In this document: positions 1-9,245 of the stretch, piece by piece | Layout of the letters: each line of letters begins with the position of its first letter | Numbering within the stretch: the stretch's first letter is position 1 | From: a virus | Taxonomy: Duplodnaviria > Heunggongvirae > Uroviricota > Caudoviricetes | DNA: 9,245 bases | Direction: 5' to 3' (one strand) | Virus record (IMG/VR): IMGVR_UViG_2534681736_000017 | Made by a program: the position numbers and the translations under genes | Notes under the pieces: model-generated | The model's input: the letters and a program-made list of their open reading frames with translations, nothing else | The model's database searches: none | What the model was told of the DNA's origin: nothing

Positions 1-11
1 AACTAAGATGA

Positions 12-38
12 AACAAAAAGCCCCACAATATGTGGGGC
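12..38 (-). terminator. Rho-independent terminator downstream of the small cargo ORF
   Basis: Inverted repeat GCCCCACA (20-27) / TGTGGGGC (31-38) with a 3-nt loop; on the minus strand the hairpin is followed by TTTTTGTT (complement of 12-19). Lies about 60 nt past the stop of the 98-283 ORF. Confidence 0.7.
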
Positions 39-97
39 TCCTTCGCGATTTATAGTAAAATAATCGATTCTCTAGCTGAAAAAATCTTTAAAAATTA

Positions 98-283
98 TCA
101 GCAATACGCAAGTTTTTTACCGTCATCCGGTACTAGTTTGATCACTACACCAGGATTCTTACGCTCTAACATCTGAGTTTGACTCCATGTAATACCAAAG
201 GTTTCCATTGGAGATGCATTGCCAGCAAAGAGTTCGGCGACGACTTTAGCTGCCTCAATCTCTATCTGCTCATGATGTTTCAT
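98..283 (-). CDS. Hypothetical small protein (61 aa), second gene of the cargo locus
   Basis: The ORF track gives 98-331 (77 aa). The internal ATG at 283-281 is preceded by AGGGG with about 5-nt spacing, whereas the ATG at 331 has no Shine-Dalgarno, so the shorter form MKHHEQIEIEAAKVV... is preferred. No transmembrane-like segment, so not a holin. No family recognised. Confidence 0.5.
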   Translation of the reverse strand: MKHHEQIEIEAAKVVAELFAGNASPMETFGITWSQTQMLERKNPGVVIKLVPDDGKKLAYC

Positions 284-474
284 AAAAATCCCCTTGTTCA
301 GCACTAAGCTGTAGTTGCTTCTTTGAAGCATAAAGGCAACAAAGTTTGTTACCTGAAGATGTATAAAGTAAAGCGTAGTACATTTTGTGTGTGCTTTGTG
401 TGGATCCAGATTGCATCAACTAAAAGAGGTTTTCAATACTTTTGTAATGATTCTGGAGAAATTAAGAATCTAAC

Positions 475-1017
475 TCACACTGATTGGTTAGGTAAAACGC
501 TCCTAAGCACCATTGCGCAACCACCTCGTTCGTAATCAGCAATGTACTCAAAACCACTTTCAGTATAGTATCTTATTGCCCCATCAACTGGACTAACTAA
601 AGCTATCGAATCAATAGATTCACCCTGAAGGTTCAGAAATCGTGCATATGCAGAGAAGCAATCCAAAACGATACCAAGCATCTGATGGTCTAGGTCTTCA
701 TGTGCATCATTACGTTTTTCCATCCAGCAAATATGCACCGCATTTTTCGGCTTACAGTAACACCCAAATGCAAATCCAATAGGCTCCCCACGATAATAAA
801 CAACTAGTTTTATCGGGTGTTCTTCCATCATATCCATAAACACTCGCGACTTTAGTCCGGGATCCCACCGCAGTTTATTGTTAGCCTTGAGGAACTCCAT
901 ATCTTTTAGTACCAGCTCGTCGGCATATACGAGCCCTAACGACTTATGAGGGAAGCGCCCTTTTAAATACTCTGCAACATTTTTAAATACTGCTGTTTGG
1001 AAGGCTTGAAACATCAT
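475..1017 (-). CDS. GNAT-fold-like putative acetyltransferase (180 aa), first gene after the pR'-like promoter and terminator
   Basis: Intact 180-aa ORF. By eye it fits a GNAT layout: strand-like VVYYRGEPIGFAFGCY, then HQMLGIVLDCFSAYARF (motif-A-like Q-x-x-G-x-V), then C-terminal IRYYTESGFEYI (motif-B-like aromatic-x-x-x-GF). The family assignment is recollection, not a search result. Weak SD (GGAT) before the ATG. Confidence 0.6.
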   Translation of the reverse strand: MMFQAFQTAVFKNVAEYLKGRFPHKSLGLVYADELVLKDMEFLKANNKLRWDPGLKSRVFMDMMEEHPIKLVVYYRGEPIGFAFGCYCKPKNAVHICWMEKRNDAHEDLDHQMLGIVLDCFSAYARFLNLQGESIDSIALVSPVDGAIRYYTESGFEYIADYERGGCAMVLRSVLPNQSV

Positions 1018-1095
1018 GTCGATCCAGACGAGACGAAAGTTTAAATTCTACCTACTCGCCGAATACCATTTCAATGCCACACATCTAAAATTCCG

Positions 1096-1120
1096 AAAAA
1101 AAACCCGCACATCAGCGGGT
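1096..1120 (-). terminator. tR'-like intrinsic terminator of the short late-leader transcript
   Basis: Stem ACCCGC (1103-1108) / GCGGGT (1115-1120), loop ACATCA. On the minus strand it is followed by a run of 7-8 T (complement of the A-run 1096-1102). The plus strand also has a T-rich tail, so it may act bidirectionally. Confidence 0.75.
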
Positions 1121-1168
1121 TTTCTACTTTTTATTAAAGCCGGACACACAATGCCTATCATTGAGAAA

Positions 1169-1196
1169 ATATTATCCATTTTTTTGAAAAATGCAA
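1169..1196 (-). promoter_or_regulatory. Candidate late promoter (pR'-like) immediately downstream of Q
   Basis: On the minus strand: -35 TTGCAT (1196-1191), 16-bp spacer, -10 TAATAT (1174-1169). Predicted start is about 65 nt upstream of the terminator at 1096-1120, which is the lambdoid pR'/short-RNA/tR' arrangement. Sequence-based prediction only. Confidence 0.5.
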
Positions 1197-1227
1197 GCAT
1201 CATGTCGCCATTTTCGTCGAAAATCAT

Positions 1228-1980
1228 TCATCTCGTCACTTTCCTCAATTGTGTCTCAGCATACGCTTCTTCCTGCCAGCACTTTGTAACCAGTTTATCA
1301 ATGACATCTGCATATCCTTTGTACCACTGATAATCCGTCAGGTCTGGTACCAGCTTCTGGACATGAAGCCGCGCCAGTGTGGTTGGTAAACGGCTAAACC
1401 GGTTTCCATTGCAACGCCCACAAACCTTATAAACAGGCGTGCCATGAAGCCTGGTTCTTTTTTCATCCAGGACAATACCTTTACCCTTACACCCTCTGCA
1501 CGCTGTGCTGACTTCTCCCTTACCATGACAATGCTGACACAGTTCCTTCACCCACTCTTCCTTGATAACAGATTCCCCGCTTCTGGAGTGTTTCACCACC
1601 TCGCGCAATACATCATGAAATCCAGTACCAGCACAATGCTCACAGCGAGCCTTACTTGCCGCAGACCTGGAATAATCAGCAAAGGCAAAATTCACAAGGT
1701 AAGGAATGATCTGTAGCCGGGTTTCTTCACTCAATTTGTTCAATGTCGGGTTATCCAGTGCCATCGCGTAATTGAGCAGACCTTCAATCGCAAACTGAGG
1801 ATCCTGAACACCAACTTTTGCCAGGAATAAGGCAAACCCAAGCGGTGCTTTCGACTGCACCATCCCCTGCGCAGCCATTACATCCGTAATTGTTAAACCA
1901 CCAGAGCCTGTCGCCGGTGCGTCATCGCTCAATTTTGGAGATTTTGGGGAGTAATATTTCGGTAAGGCTTCAAAGTTCAT
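1228..1980 (-). CDS. Q-like late-gene antitermination protein (250 aa) with four CxxCxGxG repeats
   Basis: Position is diagnostic: last gene of the early operon, directly upstream of the pR'-like promoter and terminator. Four Cys pairs (CEHCAGTG, CQHCHGKG, CRGCKGKG, CGRCNGNR) indicate zinc binding. Good SD (GGAG, 6-nt spacing) before the ATG at 1980. Resembles the 82-type Q family by recollection. Confidence 0.65.
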   Translation of the reverse strand: MNFEALPKYYSPKSPKLSDDAPATGSGGLTITDVMAAQGMVQSKAPLGFALFLAKVGVQDPQFAIEGLLNYAMALDNPTLNKLSEETRLQIIPYLVNFAFADYSRSAASKARCEHCAGTGFHDVLREVVKHSRSGESVIKEEWVKELCQHCHGKGEVSTACRGCKGKGIVLDEKRTRLHGTPVYKVCGRCNGNRFSRLPTTLARLHVQKLVPDLTDYQWYKGYADVIDKLVTKCWQEEAYAETQLRKVTR

Positions 1981-1993
1981 GCTCGTTCTCCAC

Positions 1994-2989
1994 TTACGCC
2001 AGTACGCCTATTGCCAGCGCACGATCGATAAAACGAAATATCAGCTCCAGCTGGGAGCCATACTTCTCTTCAAATGCCACGGTATCCGCATGCAGCTCGT
2101 CGTGATGCTTTCTGCACAAAGGCAACACAAAGAGGTCATGCGCTTTTGTACCCATTCCTCCCTGACCGTGACCTATCAGGTGGTGGGGATCATCAGCAGG
2201 CTTTCCACAACATGCACACGGCTGTGTCTTAACCCAGCGCGTGTACTTTTCATTAACCCAGCGGCGACGTTTTGGGCGTAACATAAAAGACTCCGGCGAC
2301 TCAGGATCCACTTTCAGCGCCAGCACCTTTTTCGCTTTATCCTGGATGATGCTGGTGGCAGGAACCGAAGGCACAAGGTCACTTTCCCGGGTAACAGACG
2401 GCACAACAGGCTTCGGTAATCTAAGTGCCTTACGGGCTGCACTTTCCGGTAAGGCATCCGCCAGGTCATTACGAATCAGCCACCAGCACAGTTCCGGCAT
2501 TGTCACAACGTGACTGTCATCAAAACCGAGATCCCGACGCACAACAGACAACACCCAGCGGGCACAGTTATCCGTTGCCATTGATTCCAGCCGTTCCGTG
2601 AACTGATCGCGCAGCTGGTTATCGCAGTGCCAGCACAGACGGATTGCGCCCGGAGCGTGTCGCATTGTGGTCATGTTCTCGCTGTGCCAGTCGGAATGAG
2701 GCCACTGGCAGCCTTTTTCACGAAGTAACCAGCTTTCAAGACATTCCACGCCACCAGCACGACGGATCACTGCCTCATTGCGGAACACGGCCCGAACGGC
2801 AGGATCATCCGCCAGCGGTTGTGATGCCGCCGGAACGGCACCACTGGCGAAAGATGAATAACGTTCCGGCTCAGGCTCCAGCAGGACACGCCCCTGCATA
2901 AACAGGGGCATCAGCTCTGAACCTGGCCTGAACAATACGATCCCCATACGCGGGGCAATTTCAGGAGTCAGTAGTGCTCTCACGGTCAC
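1994..2989 (-). CDS. DUF968-like protein with C-terminal HNH-like zinc-binding motif (YdfU-like), 331 aa
   Basis: C-terminal region CACCGKPADDPHHLIGHGQGG...LPLCRKHHDELH (about nt 2090-2218) has a C-x-C-C ... HH ... C ... HH pattern typical of HNH-like modules in lambdoid nin regions. GTG start at 2989 lies one nt after the KilA-N stop (TGAgGTG). Confidence 0.7.
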   Translation of the reverse strand: MTVRALLTPEIAPRMGIVLFRPGSELMPLFMQGRVLLEPEPERYSSFASGAVPAASQPLADDPAVRAVFRNEAVIRRAGGVECLESWLLREKGCQWPHSDWHSENMTTMRHAPGAIRLCWHCDNQLRDQFTERLESMATDNCARWVLSVVRRDLGFDDSHVVTMPELCWWLIRNDLADALPESAARKALRLPKPVVPSVTRESDLVPSVPATSIIQDKAKKVLALKVDPESPESFMLRPKRRRWVNEKYTRWVKTQPCACCGKPADDPHHLIGHGQGGMGTKAHDLFVLPLCRKHHDELHADTVAFEEKYGSQLELIFRFIDRALAIGVLA

Positions 2990-2990
2990 C

Positions 2991-3800
2991 TCAATGAACG
3001 GTATCGAGCAGCTTTAACAGCTCAGGGAATCGGGATTCGAAGAAATGCGGCTGCGTCTCGCGCGGATTTGCGGGACTGGTGATGTTCTTGCCGAACATGC
3101 AGCCTTTCGCTGTCAGCGACCAGAATTTTTTGATGTTGTTAATCGCAGTGCGGCTGTATCGTTCACGTTGTTCAACGATCCCCAGCTTCGCCATCTGGTG
3201 ATATGCCTGATTAGCTGTCAGGCGGATACCATACTGCTTCAGCAGTGCACTCAATGATAGCGTGGGGCGGCTTGAGCCATCAGGCGCGTCAGCAGGAGCA
3301 TCAATGGCATAGCGCGGTGCCAGATTCGGTAAGCCAACAGCCTCCTGGAGTTTCTGACAGGCACCAAGCACTGAAGAGTTAGACAGGTTTAACTCCCGGC
3401 GCATAAAGTCCAGCAGGATCACGCCAGCCTGCATCTTGTCAGCAGCCTGTCCGGATAATTTTTCCGGTGCGCTGGTTACCATATCGAAAGTACGGATCAC
3501 CTTCAGATGGAATGACGGGCTGATCCACATTGCATAGGCATACACCAGTTCCTTGCAGACATACGTTCCCCGTTCATTTCCCCCATGAATCACACTCACC
3601 GGGTCAACACCCAAATTCTGGGTGTTGGTCAATTCATGAACAAGCTCAACAGTTTGTTGGCTGGAAAGAAACTTTCCCGGCTCCTTGGTTCTGGCATTTG
3701 CACCAGATGCTACTGCTGCGCGATGCAGATCGTTCAGGCTGTAACGCCCATAAGCATCACGACGAACTTCAATACCATCAATGACCATCAGATTATTCAT
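2991..3800 (-). CDS. KilA-N domain protein (putative antirepressor or regulatory protein), 269 aa
   Basis: The N-terminal 110 aa carry the KilA-N-type pattern (GRYSLNDLHRAA ... GTYVCKELVYAYAMWISPSFHLKVIRTFD). SD GAGGAG lies upstream of the ATG at 3800. The C-terminal half is unassigned. Confidence 0.7.
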   Translation of the reverse strand: MNNLMVIDGIEVRRDAYGRYSLNDLHRAAVASGANARTKEPGKFLSSQQTVELVHELTNTQNLGVDPVSVIHGGNERGTYVCKELVYAYAMWISPSFHLKVIRTFDMVTSAPEKLSGQAADKMQAGVILLDFMRRELNLSNSSVLGACQKLQEAVGLPNLAPRYAIDAPADAPDGSSRPTLSLSALLKQYGIRLTANQAYHQMAKLGIVEQRERYSRTAINNIKKFWSLTAKGCMFGKNITSPANPRETQPHFFESRFPELLKLLDTVH

Positions 3801-3819
3801 ACTTCGTTTCTCCTCTTAA

Positions 3820-4209
3820 TCAGGCGGCTGCACCCGCCGTTTTCTCGTACTTACTGATAGTGATCTCGACCTTCCCTTCCGGGATAACCGGTCCCCACTC
3901 CACCAGCATTCTTTTCACCTGACTGTCGTCTTCCCACACACCCGCGTGGGTCAGGGCGTCAAACAGCGCCTTGTTATAGTTGTCCAGATCGCGGATCCGG
4001 TTATCCGGAGGAAACAACACGATCTCCACTGAAGCAGGTGCCGACGTTGGTTTCGGCAGACGACGTAACTGCTCAACTATTGCTGCGCACGCCGCGCTCT
4101 GGAATTTTCGCCCCGCCGCGCTTATCAGGCTCTTACCAGCAAACGCCCCTTTGTTGGGGTGTCGCCAGTACGTGTTCACGCTGGGCGGAAAAGGCAGGAT
4201 CAGCTTCAT
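3820..4209 (-). CDS. rusA: RusA-family Holliday junction resolvase (129 aa)
   Basis: LPFPPSVNTYWRH near the N-terminus plus the acidic motifs RDLDNYNKALFDALTHAGVWEDDSQV match RusA by recollection. The start ATG overlaps the upstream stop (ATGA). Confidence 0.85.
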   Translation of the reverse strand: MKLILPFPPSVNTYWRHPNKGAFAGKSLISAAGRKFQSAACAAIVEQLRRLPKPTSAPASVEIVLFPPDNRIRDLDNYNKALFDALTHAGVWEDDSQVKRMLVEWGPVIPEGKVEITISKYEKTAGAAA

Positions 4210-4532
4210 ACTTTCAGGTCCCTCTCATGTAACCAGTGGGTTGCACGCAGCCTTGCGTTTTCCTCACCGGCAAGCAGTGCGCGGATAATCCCGACCGCCT
4301 CGCTGTCGTCGTCCTTCACCGCGATATGAAGCGTTATCCCCCGGGCCACGCCACGCTTTATCGTGATGACGCCTTTTTTCTCCAGTGCGCGAAGATGCTC
4401 CACCGCTGCATTCACTGAACGGTATCCCAGCATGGTTGCCACCTCCTGATTGGTTGGCGGGAAGCCACGTTCTTTCTGATAAGAAATCAGCATATCCAGC
4501 ACCTGCTGCTGGCATTGAGTTAACGTCGTCAT
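4206..4532 (-). CDS. LexA DNA-binding-domain-only protein (108 aa), lacking the S24 peptidase domain
   Basis: Residues 3-70 (LTQCQQQVLDMLISYQKERGFPPTNQEVATMLGYRSVNAAVEHLRALEKKGVITIKRGVARGITL) align position by position with the E. coli LexA N-terminal winged-helix domain as I recall it (LTARQQEVFDLI...[36 protein letters not shown]...SRGIRL). Only about 35 residues follow, with no Ser/Lys dyad. ATGA overlaps at both ends. Confidence 0.8.
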   Translation of the reverse strand: MTTLTQCQQQVLDMLISYQKERGFPPTNQEVATMLGYRSVNAAVEHLRALEKKGVITIKRGVARGITLHIAVKDDDSEAVGIIRALLAGEENARLRATHWLHERDLKV

Positions 4533-5182
4533 GCCGCCATCTCCCTGACCAGTTTTTCTGCCTGCTGGCGAACCTGCGCCAGAAAGGCCTCACCACATGC
4601 CTCAAGTTCATAGCGCCCGATGTAGCTGATTGCCGGTCCCTTCCAGGTCTTGTCGAAAACAGCAATAGCACCAGCGAAGAAAGCGCCTGTCGGCACCTGC
4701 TTCTCATCCTTCGGGATAAACCAGGCAGGCAGTTCAAAACCAATACGCCCGCGAATAAAAGCAATATGATCTGCATCTTCCGGCCACCACACTTCGCTGG
4801 TGGCAGCTTTGATCAGGAAAACATAGCGCCCGCCTTTATCACGCATGGCACTGGCATGCTTCATGATGTAACGCATGCCGGTGATGTATTGCCCCTCATG
4901 CTGACTGGCGCGGCTGTATGGGGGATTACCAAAGGCAGCACCTTTAAGCTCCGCAAGACGTTCTGACCAGTCATGCGCCAGCGCGTTGTCTTCCGCAGTG
5001 TAATAAGCGGCACATTTGGCGTTATCACCGTCAGTGAACAGATCCAGAACAAACGGGCCAAACAGGGTGTTAATTCCCCAGAAAATGTTGTCCGGCGTGC
5101 GCCACTGATCGCCCACTTCCTTCAGTTCATGGGCTGGTTTGTTCCGCAGCTCCACCAGCGCCTGGCAATATTTATTACTCAT
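4529..5182 (-). CDS. Phage Dam-type N6-adenine DNA methyltransferase (217 aa from ATG at 5182)
   Basis: NPPY catalytic motif (FGNPPYS) is encoded at about 4916-4927. The ORF track extends to a GTG at 5215, but the ATG at 5182 has a GGGGG SD and overlaps the upstream stop as TAATG, so 5182 is preferred. Target specificity is unknown. Confidence 0.8.
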   Translation of the reverse strand: MSNKYCQALVELRNKPAHELKEVGDQWRTPDNIFWGINTLFGPFVLDLFTDGDNAKCAAYYTAEDNALAHDWSERLAELKGAAFGNPPYSRASQHEGQYITGMRYIMKHASAMRDKGGRYVFLIKAATSEVWWPEDADHIAFIRGRIGFELPAWFIPKDEKQVPTGAFFAGAIAVFDKTWKGPAISYIGRYELEACGEAFLAQVRQQAEKLVREMAA

Positions 5183-5670
5183 TAAGCCCCCACGTAATTC
5201 CCTGACAGATACCACTCTTCACCCGATACAGCGCGCTTGCTGCTTTTCCGTAAGCACCGCTCACAACGCGCCAGAAAATTGTTTCGTTCTGGCTGGGAGT
5301 GGCTTTCACGGAATGCCGCCATCCACACCGTTGCAGCACGACGGTATAAGCCCCTGGACTCCAGTTCTTCAGCCTGGCGGGTCAGGCACAAAATCACCCG
5401 GGGATCGTTAGTGCCGACATAGAAATTGCGCACAGGTCTGGTTTCACGAACTGGTTGTGGTTCCGGCTCCTGCGCTCTCTCAGTCAGGCGCGGGAAATGT
5501 CTGCGTGTATCCCCTTCACAACGGTGAGCCACACGCCCACTCTGACGTAACTTGCTTGCAGACTGCAGAACGCGCTGCCGTGAGTAACCTGCAAAAGCAT
5601 CCGCAATGTCTCCGGAAGTACAGCCCGGATGGGCTTCAATGAATTTCTGAACGTCATTCAAAAGACTCAT
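5182..5670 (-). CDS. PerC/ANR-family-like transcriptional regulator with an N-terminal extension (162 aa from ATG at 5670)
   Basis: LTRQAEELESRGLYRRAATVWMAAF matches the PerC-type signature (AE-LE--G--RRAA--W) by recollection. ATG at 5670 is preceded by GGGGGTGA; the ORF track starts at a GTG at 5676. Confidence 0.6.
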   Translation of the reverse strand: MSLLNDVQKFIEAHPGCTSGDIADAFAGYSRQRVLQSASKLRQSGRVAHRCEGDTRRHFPRLTERAQEPEPQPVRETRPVRNFYVGTNDPRVILCLTRQAEELESRGLYRRAATVWMAAFRESHSQPERNNFLARCERCLRKSSKRAVSGEEWYLSGNYVGA

Positions 5671-5672
5671 GC

Positions 5673-6614
5673 TCACCCCCTGAATCCTGCCGGGATCTGG
5701 CTGTAGTCCACGTTGTCGTAACTGGCTTTGAAGTACGGGTCCTCGCGTTTTTCGGTGTACGTGCTGACGGACGGCGATAAGCGCAGGGAAAGCTCATCCC
5801 ATTTTTCCCGCAGCTTCGACGGGCTGAGCACGTTACGGCACCAGAACGGATCGCGACTGACGCGGCTGTACATCTCGCAGATTTGTTTATGAGTACGACC
5901 ATCCTGCACACACATCAGGCGAATTTCGTTTGCCCAGGCTGTCCAGTTCGGTTCTTTGGGACGAACCACCTCGCCGTCACATTCGGCGGCATGCTCGTAC
6001 AGGGCGATGATTTTTTTCCAGAGCCACTGTGCACAGGTCAAATCATCCTGCGTCCCCCACTGGCGCTTTTTAGGGCTGAATACAACCGCATCAGGATGGC
6101 GAGTTAAAAAATCCTGTTCATCCGTCTGCGTGTCCGGTTGCGAAGCGTCCGGACGAGAAGGTTTTTTATCTGACGGATCATGTTTTGATTTTACTGACGG
6201 ATCCCCGCCAGATTCTGACGGGTGAAAACCCGCTTTTTTGCCAGATTTCGACGCATCAAATTTTGACGGGTCAGATTTTGATGCGTCAGATTTTGACGGG
6301 TCAGAATCTGACAGTTGAGAAAATGCCGCTGCCTGAAGCTTCGCAACGTTAAGCTGATAAACATTCGACGCATTGCGGTTACCCTGGCGACGCGCCTTAC
6401 GCGTTAACCAGCCTTCTGCTTCCAGCCGTGCGATAGCCGTTCTGACGGTGCTCATCCCCGCGCCAATCTGGCGGGCAATGGTTTCAATTGATGGCCAGCA
6501 CACACCTTCGTCATTACTGAAATCAGCCAGGCGGGCCATAATTGCCACGCTGGATAACTTCATGCCTGACGCAGCGCAACCATCCCATACATAGCCGGTT
6601 AATTTAGTGCTCAT
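5673..6614 (-). CDS. Replication initiator (O-like): N-terminal wHTH, repeat-encoded acidic/Ser-rich linker, C-terminal domain; 313 aa
   Basis: N-terminus (CWPSIETIARQIGAGMSTVRTAIARLEAEGWLTRK) is a winged-HTH of the kind seen in phage replication initiators. The central linker DPSKSDASKSDPSKFDASKS is encoded by tandem DNA iterons. SD GAGG with 6-nt spacing precedes the ATG at 6614. Confidence 0.7.
   Translation of the reverse strand: MSTKLTGYVWDGCAASGMKLSSVAIMARLADFSNDEGVCWPSIETIARQIGAGMSTVRTAIARLEAEGWLTRKARRQGNRNASNVYQLNVAKLQAAAFSQLSDSDPSKSDASKSDPSKFDASKSGKKAGFHPSESGGDPSVKSKHDPSDKKPSRPDASQPDTQTDEQDFLTRHPDAVVFSPKKRQWGTQDDLTCAQWLWKKIIALYEHAAECDGEVVRPKEPNWTAWANEIRLMCVQDGRTHKQICEMYSRVSRDPFWCRNVLSPSKLREKWDELSLRLSPSVSTYTEKREDPYFKASYDNVDYSQIPAGFRG
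6164..6313. repeat. Iteron array (about eight copies of roughly GATTYTGACGGRTCA), putative phage replication origin inside the initiator gene
   Basis: Copies begin near 6164, 6187, 6209, 6242, 6258, 6272, 6287 and 6303. The last four are contiguous at 15-bp period, for example AGATTTTGATGCGTCA, AGATTTTGACGGGTCA, GAATCTGACAG. This is analogous to the lambda ori iterons within gene O. Confidence 0.65.
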
Positions 6615-6623
6615 GACCGACCT

Positions 6624-6962
6624 CTATTTCCCTGAATTTACGACGAAACTGTTCGAGCGGGCTGAAGCACTCATGCTCATAGCCTTCGCGGAGGTAGATA
6701 ACCCGTTGTGTTTCCGGTTCCCAACGAATGACTCTGACGGGCACTCCGTAGTGATCTTTGAACCAGCGGTTAACTTGTCGCAAAGGACTGTCTCCTTTTG
6801 CCTGTTGAAATCACCCACAGCCCACTCTGCAAAGCTGTGGGTTACAATTTCCCTGTCACCTGGTACATTCACTGCATAGCAATACTCCACCTTCGCTTTT
6901 CCACCCGGTACAGGAAGTGCAATCAGTTGCGAGCGACGGTAGTGTGTTGTTAAACTGTTCAT
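6624..6962 (-). CDS. Hypothetical protein (112 aa) between the CII-like and replication genes
   Basis: Start ATG overlaps the CII-like stop (ATGA), and its stop sits immediately before the SD of the replication gene, which fits the coupled operon. No family recognised and the composition is unconvincing. A competing plus-strand ORF (6607-6879) exists. Confidence 0.4.
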
Positions 6963-7510
6963 GCGTTAGTTTCTCCACAGTCACGACACGCCACGGCGCC
7001 CGGAGCTGCACACTCGCGGGCGTCATTACTTTCTGAAATGCAAAAAATTTTGTAGACCAGTGCTGCATGCTCCTGCAGCTTCGAAATTGAGAGGTACAGC
7101 TCGTCGTTAATTGCTGTCTTCTCATGCGGTTCCACTACACCGTCTTCAATTGCTGAACGAATCTGTTTTGAATAACTGCCGATCTGTTCAATGACCTCCA
7201 GCAGGCGTTGGTTGATATCGGCGTTGTCCACATCCTCGACATCAGGAAGAGACACAAAGACGCCATTTGCAGACTGCGCCACAGCGTCAGCAATGAAGTG
7301 AGTTCCACCAGCACGTTGCAAAATCATTGCCCATCCCAGCGGGAAAATCTGATCGCCATCGGCACGAAGGCGGTTAAATAATGCGTTCTCTGTTACATCC
7401 AGCCAGTCAGCAGCTTCAGCGTACCCCCCCGGCAACGCTGCGATAGTTTTTCTGACAGCTTTCACGTACCACTCAGGCTGTTTTTCTACTTTCCAGTGAT
7501 GCTTACCCAC
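6959..7510 (-). CDS. CII-like phage regulatory protein (186-type CII family-like), 183 aa, GTG start
   Basis: [37 protein letters not shown] resembles the phage 186 CII segment (NKLNPEQPHQFTPPELWLL...LVDGFLAQ) by recollection. GTG at 7510 is preceded by AGGAGGT with 6-nt spacing and overlaps the Cro-like gene end. Confidence 0.55.
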
Positions 7511-7763
7511 GGTTCACCTCCTGTTCCTGTGGTTTAAACCCATTCTGGTTTTGGCTAGATTGAAAACGTGCCGGATAAAGAATCTGCATTTCGCTGACTT
7601 CACCCTTAAAAAAATTGGCTAAACGTTCTGCAAGCTCGATAGATGGAATCTGCTCCAGCCTCTCAATACGACTCAACGTCGCTGGATTGACTTGAACACC
7701 CGCAGCAACATGCTGCAAAGTGAAACCATGCGCCTTACGCACATTTCGTAATGGTGATTGCAT
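7503..7763 (-). CDS. Cro-like HTH (XRE-type) DNA-binding protein, 86 aa
   Basis: HTH segment FTLQHVAAGVQVNPATLSRIE. SD GGAGG lies 6 nt upstream of the ATG. It is the first gene of the rightward operon, divergent from the cI-like repressor. Confidence 0.75.
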   Translation of the reverse strand: MQSPLRNVRKAHGFTLQHVAAGVQVNPATLSRIERLEQIPSIELAERLANFFKGEVSEMQILYPARFQSSQNQNGFKPQEQEVNRG

Positions 7764-7860
7764 ACGCCCTCCAAATATTGCGCGTTATGCATGTTATTTC
7801 ACGCAATTATTTTGCGCAAGTTGATTTGCTTATCACGCAATAAAGAAATGTAATAAACGC
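7764..7860. promoter_or_regulatory. Divergent immunity control region (PR-like and PRM-like promoters with repeated operator half-sites)
   Basis: Four copies of a 7-mer CACGCAA or its complement: TTGCGCG 7778-7784, CACGCAA 7800-7806, TTGCGCA 7812-7818, CACGCAA 7834-7840. They include a 19-bp palindrome CACGCAA-TTATT-TTGCGCA (7800-7818). Candidate PR on the minus strand: -35 TTGCGC, 17-bp spacer, -10 TAACAT. Candidate PRM on the plus strand: TTGATT (7821-7826) with an AT-rich -10 near 7849-7856. Confidence 0.6.
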
Positions 7861-8553
7861 ATGAACATAGGAAACCGAGTCAGACAACTTCGCCAAGCGA
7901 AGAACATGAAAATCGCCGATCTCGCTGAAGCGATAGGAGTAGATGCGGCGAACATCTCGCGCTTAGAAACGGGTAAGCAAAAACAATTTACCGAACAAAC
8001 ACTGAGTAATATTGCCAAGAGCTTAGGTGTTGATATTGCTGATCTCTTTACCTCTGCCCACAAAAGTAATACTGTATATAAAAACAGTAATAATGAGGAT
8101 GTTGCGCAGGTGAAGGATGTGTTCCGTATTGAAATGCTGGATATCAGTGCCAGTGCGGGAAATGGCCTTATCCAGGGCGGTGATGTCATTGATGTGATTC
8201 ATGCCATCGAATACAGAACTGATAATGCTGTATCAATGTTCGGCGGACGACCAGCCAATCACATCAAAGTTATCAACGTTCGTGGGGACAGTATGTGTCC
8301 AACCATTGAGCCAGGAGATCTCATCTTCGTTGATGTCAGCATCAATCAGTTTGATGGTGATGGTATATATGTCTTTGGTTTTGATGACAAAATATACGTT
8401 AAAAGACTTCAAATGATTCCTGACAAACTGCTGGTGATTTCTGATAACCAGATTTACCGTGAATGGGGAATTACTAGCGAAAACGAACACCGATTCATGG
8501 TCTTTGGAAAGGTCTTAATCAGTCAGTCGCAAACCCTTAAGAGACATAATTAA
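7861..8553 (+). CDS. cI-like phage repressor (HTH_XRE N-terminal domain plus S24 LexA-like autopeptidase domain), 230 aa
   Basis: N-terminal HTH (MKIADLAEAIGVDAANISRLETGKQ). Candidate Ala-Gly cleavage site A99-G100 (SASAGNG), Ser nucleophile in RGDSMCP (S144) and Lys in YVKRL (K181). No SD before the ATG, so possibly leaderless like lambda cI. Confidence 0.9.
   Translation: MNIGNRVRQLRQAKNMKIADLAEAIGVDAANISRLETGKQKQFTEQTLSNIAKSLGVDIADLFTSAHKSNTVYKNSNNEDVAQVKDVFRIEMLDISASAGNGLIQGGDVIDVIHAIEYRTDNAVSMFGGRPANHIKVINVRGDSMCPTIEPGDLIFVDVSINQFDGDGIYVFGFDDKIYVKRLQMIPDKLLVISDNQIYREWGITSENEHRFMVFGKVLISQSQTLKRHN
8070..8089. promoter_or_regulatory. Near-consensus LexA (SOS) box inside the cI-like coding sequence
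   Basis: TACTGTATATAAAAACAGTA matches the E. coli LexA box consensus TACTGTATATATATACAGTA at 18 of 20 positions, with perfect CTGT-N8-ACAG. It is the only CTGT-N8-ACAG in the window. Function is unproven. Confidence 0.45.
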
Positions 8554-8572
8554 CCTCAATATCCCATCCATC

Positions 8573-8597
8573 GGCCACCGAAAGGTGGCTTTTTATT
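8573..8597 (+). terminator. Rho-independent terminator downstream of the cI-like gene
   Basis: Stem GCCACC (8574-8579) / GGTGGC (8584-8589) with a GAAA tetraloop, followed by TTTTTATT; 20 nt after the cI stop. Confidence 0.8.
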
Positions 8598-8829
8598 ACC
8601 TATAAATTTGCATATCTCGCAATTTAATTTTATCTTTTATTCCAGACCAACTACAGGATTACAACAAAATCTGGTTGCAACACGGTGCATGTGTCGTAAG
8701 CAGTCAGTAAATGTCAAAAACGAACAGGCAGGACGCCCACGAAGTAGCCGCCTGGGGCATATGAAGTCCAGGATGATTCGTTGAGTCATGTTGTGCCACT
8801 AGGCACTCATGTTAAAGCAGGTGTATGAA

Positions 8830-9105
8830 ATGAAAGTCCAGATTTTAAACAATAACTGTGAAGTCGTTTGGTCATACGACATAGCCGCCCCTGTAGATCA
8901 GAGCGGCGATAGCTGGACCAATGGGAAACATCAGATTATGGCTGGAGTTGTGTTCTCTTTACGCCGTGCTTTAGAACAGGCTGAAGTCTTTCCATCAGAC
9001 CCTGAATGGAAATGGCCTTTTTCTATTTGTCCAAATTCGGAGAGTACATTTCAGAAAATTGGTCAGAAAGTCGCACTCGAAGAGCATCAGCCAACTGTTT
9101 CCTGA
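8830..9105 (+). CDS. Hypothetical protein (92 aa from ATG at 8830)
   Basis: The ORF track starts at 8809, but the ATG at 8830 has an AGGTG SD with 6-nt spacing. No family recognised. An antisense reading frame through 9030-9176 also looks protein-like, so the coding strand here is uncertain. Confidence 0.35.
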   Translation: MKVQILNNNCEVVWSYDIAAPVDQSGDSWTNGKHQIMAGVVFSLRRALEQAEVFPSDPEWKWPFSICPNSESTFQKIGQKVALEEHQPTVS

Positions 9106-9176
9106 TTTTTTCAGGTAACTCGTCGGCATCGCAGAAACAACAACGCTCGATCATGTTGAAAGCCGATTCGTAGAAC

Positions 9177-9245
9177 TGAACCGCCCCGGAAATCCTGGAG
9201 ACTAAACTCCCTGAGAAAGAGGTAAACAGGATGACTAAAAATACT
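9177..9245 (+). mobile_element. Probable left end of an IS3-family insertion sequence (IS629-like), truncated by the window edge
   Basis: Sequence begins TGAACCGCCCCGG, as IS3-family terminal repeats begin with TG. About 54 nt later AGAGG-N8-ATG (9231) opens an ORF starting MTKNT, which matches my recollection of IS629-type OrfA (MTKNTRFSPEV...). Only 5 codons are visible; not verifiable within the window. Confidence 0.45.

Follow-up and report, generated by a model that had tools for sequence, protein, structure and literature searches.

An IS629/IS1203 left end in the early-left arm of an SfV-like prophage of O157:H7-type Escherichia coli

Gene content of the window and its host prophage

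The window, that is, the whole stretch of 9,245 nucleotides analysed here (IMG/VR record IMGVR_UViG_2534681736_000017), carries a block of minus-strand genes, a cI-like repressor gene on the plus strand, a short early-left segment and, at its right edge, the beginning of an insertion sequence (IS). Minus-strand genes were taken from the RefSeq annotation of identical relatives, and five of them together with the cI-like gene were analysed with Pfam.

1228-1980, minus strand: Q-type antiterminator
1994-2989, minus strand: DUF968
2991-3800, minus strand: KilA-N
3820-4209, minus strand: RusA
4206-4532, minus strand: LexA-like protein
4529-5182, minus strand: Dam methylase
5182-5676, minus strand: PerC/YfdN
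5673-6614, minus strand: HTH_36 replication protein
6604-6783, minus strand: DUF4222
6959-7510, minus strand: CII-like YmfL
7503-7763, minus strand: Cro-like HTH
7861-8553, plus strand: cI-like repressor (Pfam HTH_3 and Peptidase_S24; WP_001020634.1)
8573-8598, plus strand: terminator-like hairpin with T run, 3′ of the cI-like gene (terminator scan; a terminator is annotated at the equivalent place in SfV)
8608-8622, no strand: operator-like palindrome TTGCATATCTCGCAA, putative OL (TTGC-N7-GCAA motif)
8830-9105, plus strand: orf33-like ORF, the first on the early-left side, 91 aa (phrog_3195, E 6e-70; SfV orf33 lies at the same position)

The domains found in the six genes submitted to Pfam were Peptidase_S24 together with HTH, HTH_3, Phage_CP76, HTH_36 and Antiterm. 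Overall, the region shows the features of a lambdoid early region, with divergent cI-like and cro-like genes, operator-like repeats, a cII-like gene, replication genes and Q in the window, and xis and int in the relatives. Between the cI-like and cro-like genes, the TTGC-N7-GCAA motif is found at 7826-7840, and a version with 2 mismatches lies at 7778-7792. The palindrome TTGCATATCTCGCAA is single-copy in the window and in strains FRIK944 and BB24-1; in most O157:H7 relatives, e.g., FRIK2455 (L001:9049-9092), it is doubled by a 22-bp tandem duplication. The orf33-like ORF would encode 98 aa if read from the ATG at 8809. A simple promoter scan of 7700-9245 found no sigma-70 consensus, and the position of the promoter PL is presumed. 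An Rfam scan of the window gave nothing at gathering score.

Positions 1-9178 are 100% identical, in a single piece, to the genomes of E. coli O157:H7 FRIK944 and BB24-1, both of which are devoid of the IS. The FRIK944 region represents a prophage that ends with a xis-like gene and int beside tRNA-Thr (thrW) and proA, and that continues on the opposite side into lysis and terminase genes. Beyond the window, the plus strand of the relatives carries yfdR, yfdT, the xis-like gene, int and tRNA-Thr. Judged by this identity, the insertion has hit a lambdoid, SfV-like prophage that occupies thrW in O157:H7-type E. coli. Sp1 of strain Sakai was considered as the host prophage and rejected, as it occupies thrW in Sakai but is another element.

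Among phages, SfV, SfII and others like them from E. coli come closest. With the Shigella flexneri phage SfV the window shares the order of Q, dam, replication, cro, cI and orf33 genes and 96% nucleotide identity over 60% of its length. SfV differs, however, in having no IS at the window's site and in carrying orf32 and orf31 at the yfdP/yfdQ positions, whereas this segment between the orf33-like ORF and yfdR is missing from the O157 prophage. The gap between the orf33-like ORF and yfdR measures ~0.7 kb in the O157 prophage versus ~2.0 kb in SfV and many E. coli relatives. An SfV-like prophage has been described as the prophage most specific of O157:H7 strains with the tir 255 A-allele, occurring in 87% of them versus 7% of T-allele strains (PMC10758439).

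The IS629/IS1203 end at the window edge

The window end reads ...CGATTCGTAGAAC/TGAACCGCCCCGGAAATCCTGGAGACTAAACTCCCTGAGAAAGAGGTAAACAGGATGACTAAAAATACT (the stroke marks the break), and the motif TGAACCGCCCCGG begins at 9177. From there to the last position, the sequence is 100% identical to the first 69 nucleotides of IS629/IS1203, a member of the IS3 family; this portion amounts to 5% of the IS length and contains the following features.

9177-9245, plus strand: 5′ part of IS629/IS1203, running off the window end (same letters as L002:1501-1569, where a complete 1,310-bp copy begins)
9177-9201, plus strand: left inverted repeat (IRL) TGAACCGCCCCGGAAATCCTGGAGA, 25 bp, identical to the IRL of complete copies
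9202-9230, plus strand: leader of 29 nt with a ribosome-binding site
9219-9222, plus strand: Shine-Dalgarno-like GAGG, 8 nt upstream of the orfA start (direct reading)
9231-9245, plus strand: orfA codons 1-5, MTKNT (direct reading; ATG at 9231-9233, then ACT AAA AAT ACT)

Megablast with 9177-9245 yielded full-length matches in 5,731 records and in 3,560 of 5,426 complete E. coli genomes (best match 100%, E 2e-27), and the 69 nucleotides recur at up to 39-40 places per E. coli record. The matches fall under the annotations 'IS3-like element IS1203 family transposase' or 'IS3 family transposase'. The first-pass annotation had proposed, from the letters of the window, that an IS3-family, IS629-like element starts at 9177, and had suggested a BLAST comparison of these positions. 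Performed here against complete E. coli genomes, this comparison clearly confirmed the proposal, as annotated IS1203 and IS3-family transposase regions were matched at 100%. Its reading of a Shine-Dalgarno sequence and an ATG followed by the first residues of an IS629-type OrfA was likewise correct.

As complete comparison copy we used the one present in O157:H7 PV15-279 (locus L002). It is 1,310 bp long, agrees with the window in its first 69 nucleotides and is flanked by a 3-bp duplication, AAG. Its termini, TGAACCGCCCCGGAAATCCTGGAGA and the complement of TGAACCGCCCCGGGTTTCCTGGAGA, pair at 22 of 25 positions (IRL/IRR), and the element ends 5′-TG...CA-3′. OrfA consists of 108 aa, starts with MTKNTRFSPEV and contains Pfam HTH_Tnp_1, whereas OrfB (296 aa; Pfam HTH_21, rve and rve_3) overlaps OrfA in the −1 frame, with an ALIL frameshift pseudoknot spanning the overlap (Rfam, 121.5 bits). 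The transposase CDS is annotated at IS start + 54, and GAGG takes the same position relative to the orfA start as in the window.

In the IS3 family (IS911, IS3 and IS2), −1 frameshifting yields the transposase OrfAB, which forms an IS circle whose two ends abut; the circle then integrates with a 3-4 bp duplication. Complete IS629 copies resemble IS911 and IS3 in the −1 frameshifting between orfA and orfB, the TG...CA ends and the duplications of 3-4 bp; circle formation and a junction promoter would apply to the window copy by analogy with these elements.

Taken over all 69 nucleotides, the match goes far beyond chance and identifies 9177-9245 as the left terminus of an IS3-family element of the IS629/IS1203 type. 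IS1203 and IS3411 count as isoforms of IS629 (PMC3271280), and IRL, leader and OrfA start of the window are all the same as in this IS629/IS1203/IS3411 group (IS3 family, IS51 group; 69 of 69 nucleotides). The subtype is not resolvable from this stretch, over which the reference-type copy equals a copy differing at 64 of 1,310 nucleotides. The element is a known IS, E. coli O157:H7 is its best-known host and the insertion is an ordinary one. No IS is more abundant in E. coli O157:H7 than IS629, and the visible window sequence shows no differences from it. IS629 generates duplications of 3-4 bp, and 62% of its copies lie within prophages, making the prophage location observed here typical (PMC3271280).

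The insertion point and the interrupted arm

Outside the two strains mentioned above, the window flank is 99.8% identical to many further O157:H7 strains, and every flank match ends at 9178. As the flank matches extend to 9178 and the IS matches start at 9177, two nucleotides (TG) are ambiguous; the insertion point was assigned to 9176/9177 because the termini of IS629 start with TG. In FRIK944 and BB24-1 the empty site reads ...CGTAGAAC/TGTTTTTGC, continuing uninterrupted as TGTTTTTGCTGAG after the point. The empty-site consensus of FRIK944, FRIK2455, SfV and ten other loci is ...GATTCGTAGAAC TGTTT(T/C)TGCTGAGTG, with C for the first T in locus L012; at the same point the window reads ...GATTCGTAGAAC TGAACCGCC. 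Thirteen out of 16 homologous loci are empty (...GTAGAAC/TGTTT), one is the locus with C replacing T and one carries a copy 2 bp away. The sixteenth, from strain NZRM3614, has copies elsewhere in the arm and is empty at the window's site by flank match. With this site uninterrupted in the closest relatives, the presence of the IS at 9176/9177 is the result of an insertion.

The two features cut or created at this point are the following.

9174-9176, no strand: predicted left copy of a 3-bp target duplication, AAC (proposed from the FRIK944 empty site and the 3-bp duplications of complete copies)
9023-9176, minus strand: 3′ part of an antisense ORF, from the third base of codon 31 through codon 81 to the stop (by comparison with the intact ORF of FRIK944)

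None of the 142 complete genomes carrying the flank has an IS at this point. The exact left junction gave no match in IMG/VR, the GTDB representative genomes and the JGI metagenomes. The predicted right junction gave no match as the exact AAC pattern in IMG/VR, nor with any duplication of 0-6 nucleotides in metagenomes and GTDB genomes. When both junctions were compared by BLAST with the 5,426 complete E. coli genomes, only the insertions of strain 135 and of the NZRM3614 group (247 bp upstream) were retrieved. A search for the 43-aa truncated antisense product, aimed at IS-interrupted contigs, found it not on record. Since the junction is absent from every collection searched, the insertion counts as a strain-specific polymorphism; as the flank is 100% identical to IS-free strains, it is very recent.

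The IS starts 71 nucleotides past the stop of the 8830-9105 ORF, 555 nucleotides past the putative OL and 623 nucleotides past the stop codon of the cI-like gene, and orfA is oriented like the 8830-9105 ORF and the early-left genes. By analogy with lambda, and with PL at its presumed position, the IS would lie in the early-left (PL) operon. The earlier suggestion of an IS inserted beside the cI-like gene region, on the early-left side, is borne out in its core by the uninterrupted site of the closest relatives; given the distance from the cI-like stop codon, the element does not abut the immunity region as had been stated. Nor is the 8830-9105 ORF a remnant of what was interrupted: it is intact, full length and identical to WP_021563905.1, known from thousands of assemblies and present in the assembly collection in 7,527 blocks. 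The alternative idea of an interrupted antisense gene fared better, although this ORF ends at 9023 and not near 9111.

In FRIK944 the antisense ORF comprises 81 codons at window-equivalent 9023-9268 (MTFDEKELDNAINK...SPNLDK), and the IS splits codon 31. Over its full length it matches phrog_3311 (E 3e-55). The ORF corresponds to WP_000141753.1 in NZRM3614 (PGAP) and is called in loci L009 and L010; in FRIK944 and FRIK2455 it is not annotated. The convergent ORFs at 8830-9105 (plus) and from 9023 (minus) overlap by 83 nucleotides and have a PHROG family each. PGAP annotates the antisense ORF in NZRM3614, where the plus-strand orf33-like ORF is broken by an IS. Of these two ORFs, at most one may be real. 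Pfam gave no match for either of them, and the only assignments are to PHROG families of unknown function.

About 170 nucleotides downstream of the site, the relatives contain a GC-rich stretch (56% GC; L003:14348-14570, window-equivalent 9348-9570), which PGAP labels as a frameshifted hypothetical protein. It yields a sub-threshold Rfam match to the STnc100 sRNA (43 bits versus a gathering score of 47, E 1.3e-7), and might represent an RNA gene rather than a pseudogene.

Further IS629 copies are found in the homologous arm of other genomes. In E. coli strain 135 (NZ_CP080260.1, L016:6080-7388) a copy oriented like the one in the window lies 2 bp further right and splits the same antisense ORF. 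It differs in its duplication (CTG versus the predicted AAC), is 1,309 bp long and is frameshifted; its host does not belong to O157, and the immunity region is not the one seen in the window. O157 strain NZRM3614 carries two copies in the same SfV-like prophage and arm (L017:1761-3070 and 3814-5123), both with an AAC duplication. Copy 1 interrupts the orf33-like ORF after window-equivalent 8929 and has plus orientation, as in the window; copy 2 follows window-equivalent 9669, downstream, in minus orientation. Identical match spans indicate the same two copies in strains CV261, AC-3 and AC-5, and in this group the window's insertion site is empty.

Origin of the junction and possible consequences

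The junction is best explained by a simple insertion of a full-length IS629/IS1203 copy into the early-left arm of the SfV-like prophage at thrW, to which we assign a probability of about 0.65. A copy of the element would have transposed between 9176 and 9177, inside the antisense ORF and with orfA co-oriented with the early-left genes. OrfAB, made by −1 frameshifting, would have produced a circular copy with abutted ends, which would have integrated with a duplication of 3-4 bp, predicted to be AAC. Beyond 9245 we would expect 1,241 more nucleotides of IS629 ending ...CCCGGGGCGGTTCA, followed by AAC (or GAAC) and TGTTTTTGCTGAGTGTCGC.

The most serious competitor, which we nevertheless consider rather improbable, accepts the IS629 end as real and places a deletion, an inversion or another IS-mediated rearrangement on its right side; it corresponds to the defective or rearranged prophage considered in the first-pass annotation. 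No target duplication would then be present, and the early-left arm (yfdR to xis and int) would be partly or wholly missing or moved. Matching duplications were found at only 21 of 47 IS629 sites across four O157 genomes, leaving 26 of the 47 without (PMC3271280), and IS629 excision dependent on IEE is known to generate adjacent deletions of a few nucleotides to more than 40 kb (PMC9943667). It is because so few sites keep their duplications, and because of the deletions made by IEE, that a rearrangement was given this much weight beside a simple insertion. The 39-40 places at which the element can occur in a single record also provide many copies for recombination in an O157 strain, and two of those in the early-left arm of NZRM3614 lie in opposite orientation. 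Against this, nothing in the window suggests a rearrangement, the left flank matches IS-free relatives at 100% as far as the IS end, and all four complete copies checked in the prophage family (three of them in the arm) have clean 3-bp duplications.

Alternatively, only a fragment of IS629 could be present, either its left end by itself or a copy with an internal deletion, which would be non-functional. Partial IS3-family and IS629 pieces are common in E. coli records, e.g., on plasmid p503025_105, and a truncated IS629 is known from pO55 (PMC3271280). We regard this as very unlikely, since the 69 nucleotides show no mismatch to active-type copies and the insertion is a very recent one (the nearest relatives being IS-free and 100% identical over 9,178 nucleotides), and recent insertions are normally complete.

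Less probable still is an assembly or windowing artefact that joined the prophage to the end of a repeat. The window reaches just 69 nucleotides into a high-copy repeat, a stopping point common among short-read contigs, and may itself end where such a contig ended, in which case the IS end explains where the sequence stops; the absence of the junction from all collections searched would also fit an artefact. The break coincides, however, with the very first base of the IS apart from the 2-nt TG overlap, as in true transposition junctions, and a contig ending within a repeat still shows a genuine junction. Moreover, other genomes have independent insertions of IS629 at distances of 2 bp and 247 bp, which shows the stretch to be a real target.

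The least probable explanation is that the window and strain 135 share one ancestral insertion (after ...GAACTG), recombined between prophages with loss of one TG of the junction TGTG. The two copies have the same orientation and lie 2 bp apart, and the strain 135 copy is 2 positions off the O157 reference copy. The window flank is nevertheless identical to that of IS-free O157 relatives, whereas the strain 135 flank differs on both sides of the IS and its immunity region is a different one, with 601 differences over ~1,480 aligned upstream columns. Such an origin would need breakpoints tight around the IS plus a deletion at the junction, whereas an independent insertion needs one event.

A simple insertion would, apart from splitting the antisense ORF, place a 1.3-kb insert between the upstream promoter and yfdR, yfdT, the xis-like gene and int together with the STnc100-like region, so that a polar effect might be expected. 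Such polarity could lower early-left expression and thereby reduce prophage excision. If the IS does block early-left transcription, the prophage could become fixed, and prophage domestication is known to proceed by this route. In practical terms the finding has little value. It adds one further strain-specific IS629 site to those of O157:H7, comparable to the sites that IS-printing and lineage typing already exploit, and records a very recent event in a prophage that is characteristic of bovine-biased (tir 255 A-allele) strains.

Together with the window, strain 135 and the two copies of the NZRM3614 group bring the number of independent IS629 insertions within 740 bp of the arm (window-equivalent 8929-9669) to four, and an AAC duplication is observed or predicted in three of them. 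Only tentatively can the 740 bp beyond the cI-like gene be put forward as a recurrent IS629 target, owing either to a local preference or to selection for silencing the early-left genes and so immobilising the prophage. The clustering may reflect regional preference, silencing selection or ascertainment, and it is the only point that might merit a look on population scale. The target specificity of IS629 has been reported as unknown (PMC3271280). AT-richness was considered as a cause of the clustering and discarded, the GC content around the site (38-45%) being nothing striking. A target resembling the IS ends, as in IS911, was also dismissed, as 1,069 of 2,000 shuffles scored as well. AAC as a general IS629 duplication is unsupported in the small sample available (AAG, CAG, CTG, AAC, AAC and GAT). 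Elsewhere in this prophage family, an E. coli assembly (GCA_037539565.1, L012:2218-3527) carries an IS629-type copy with a CAG duplication in place of the DUF968 gene beside the Q-like antiterminator gene.
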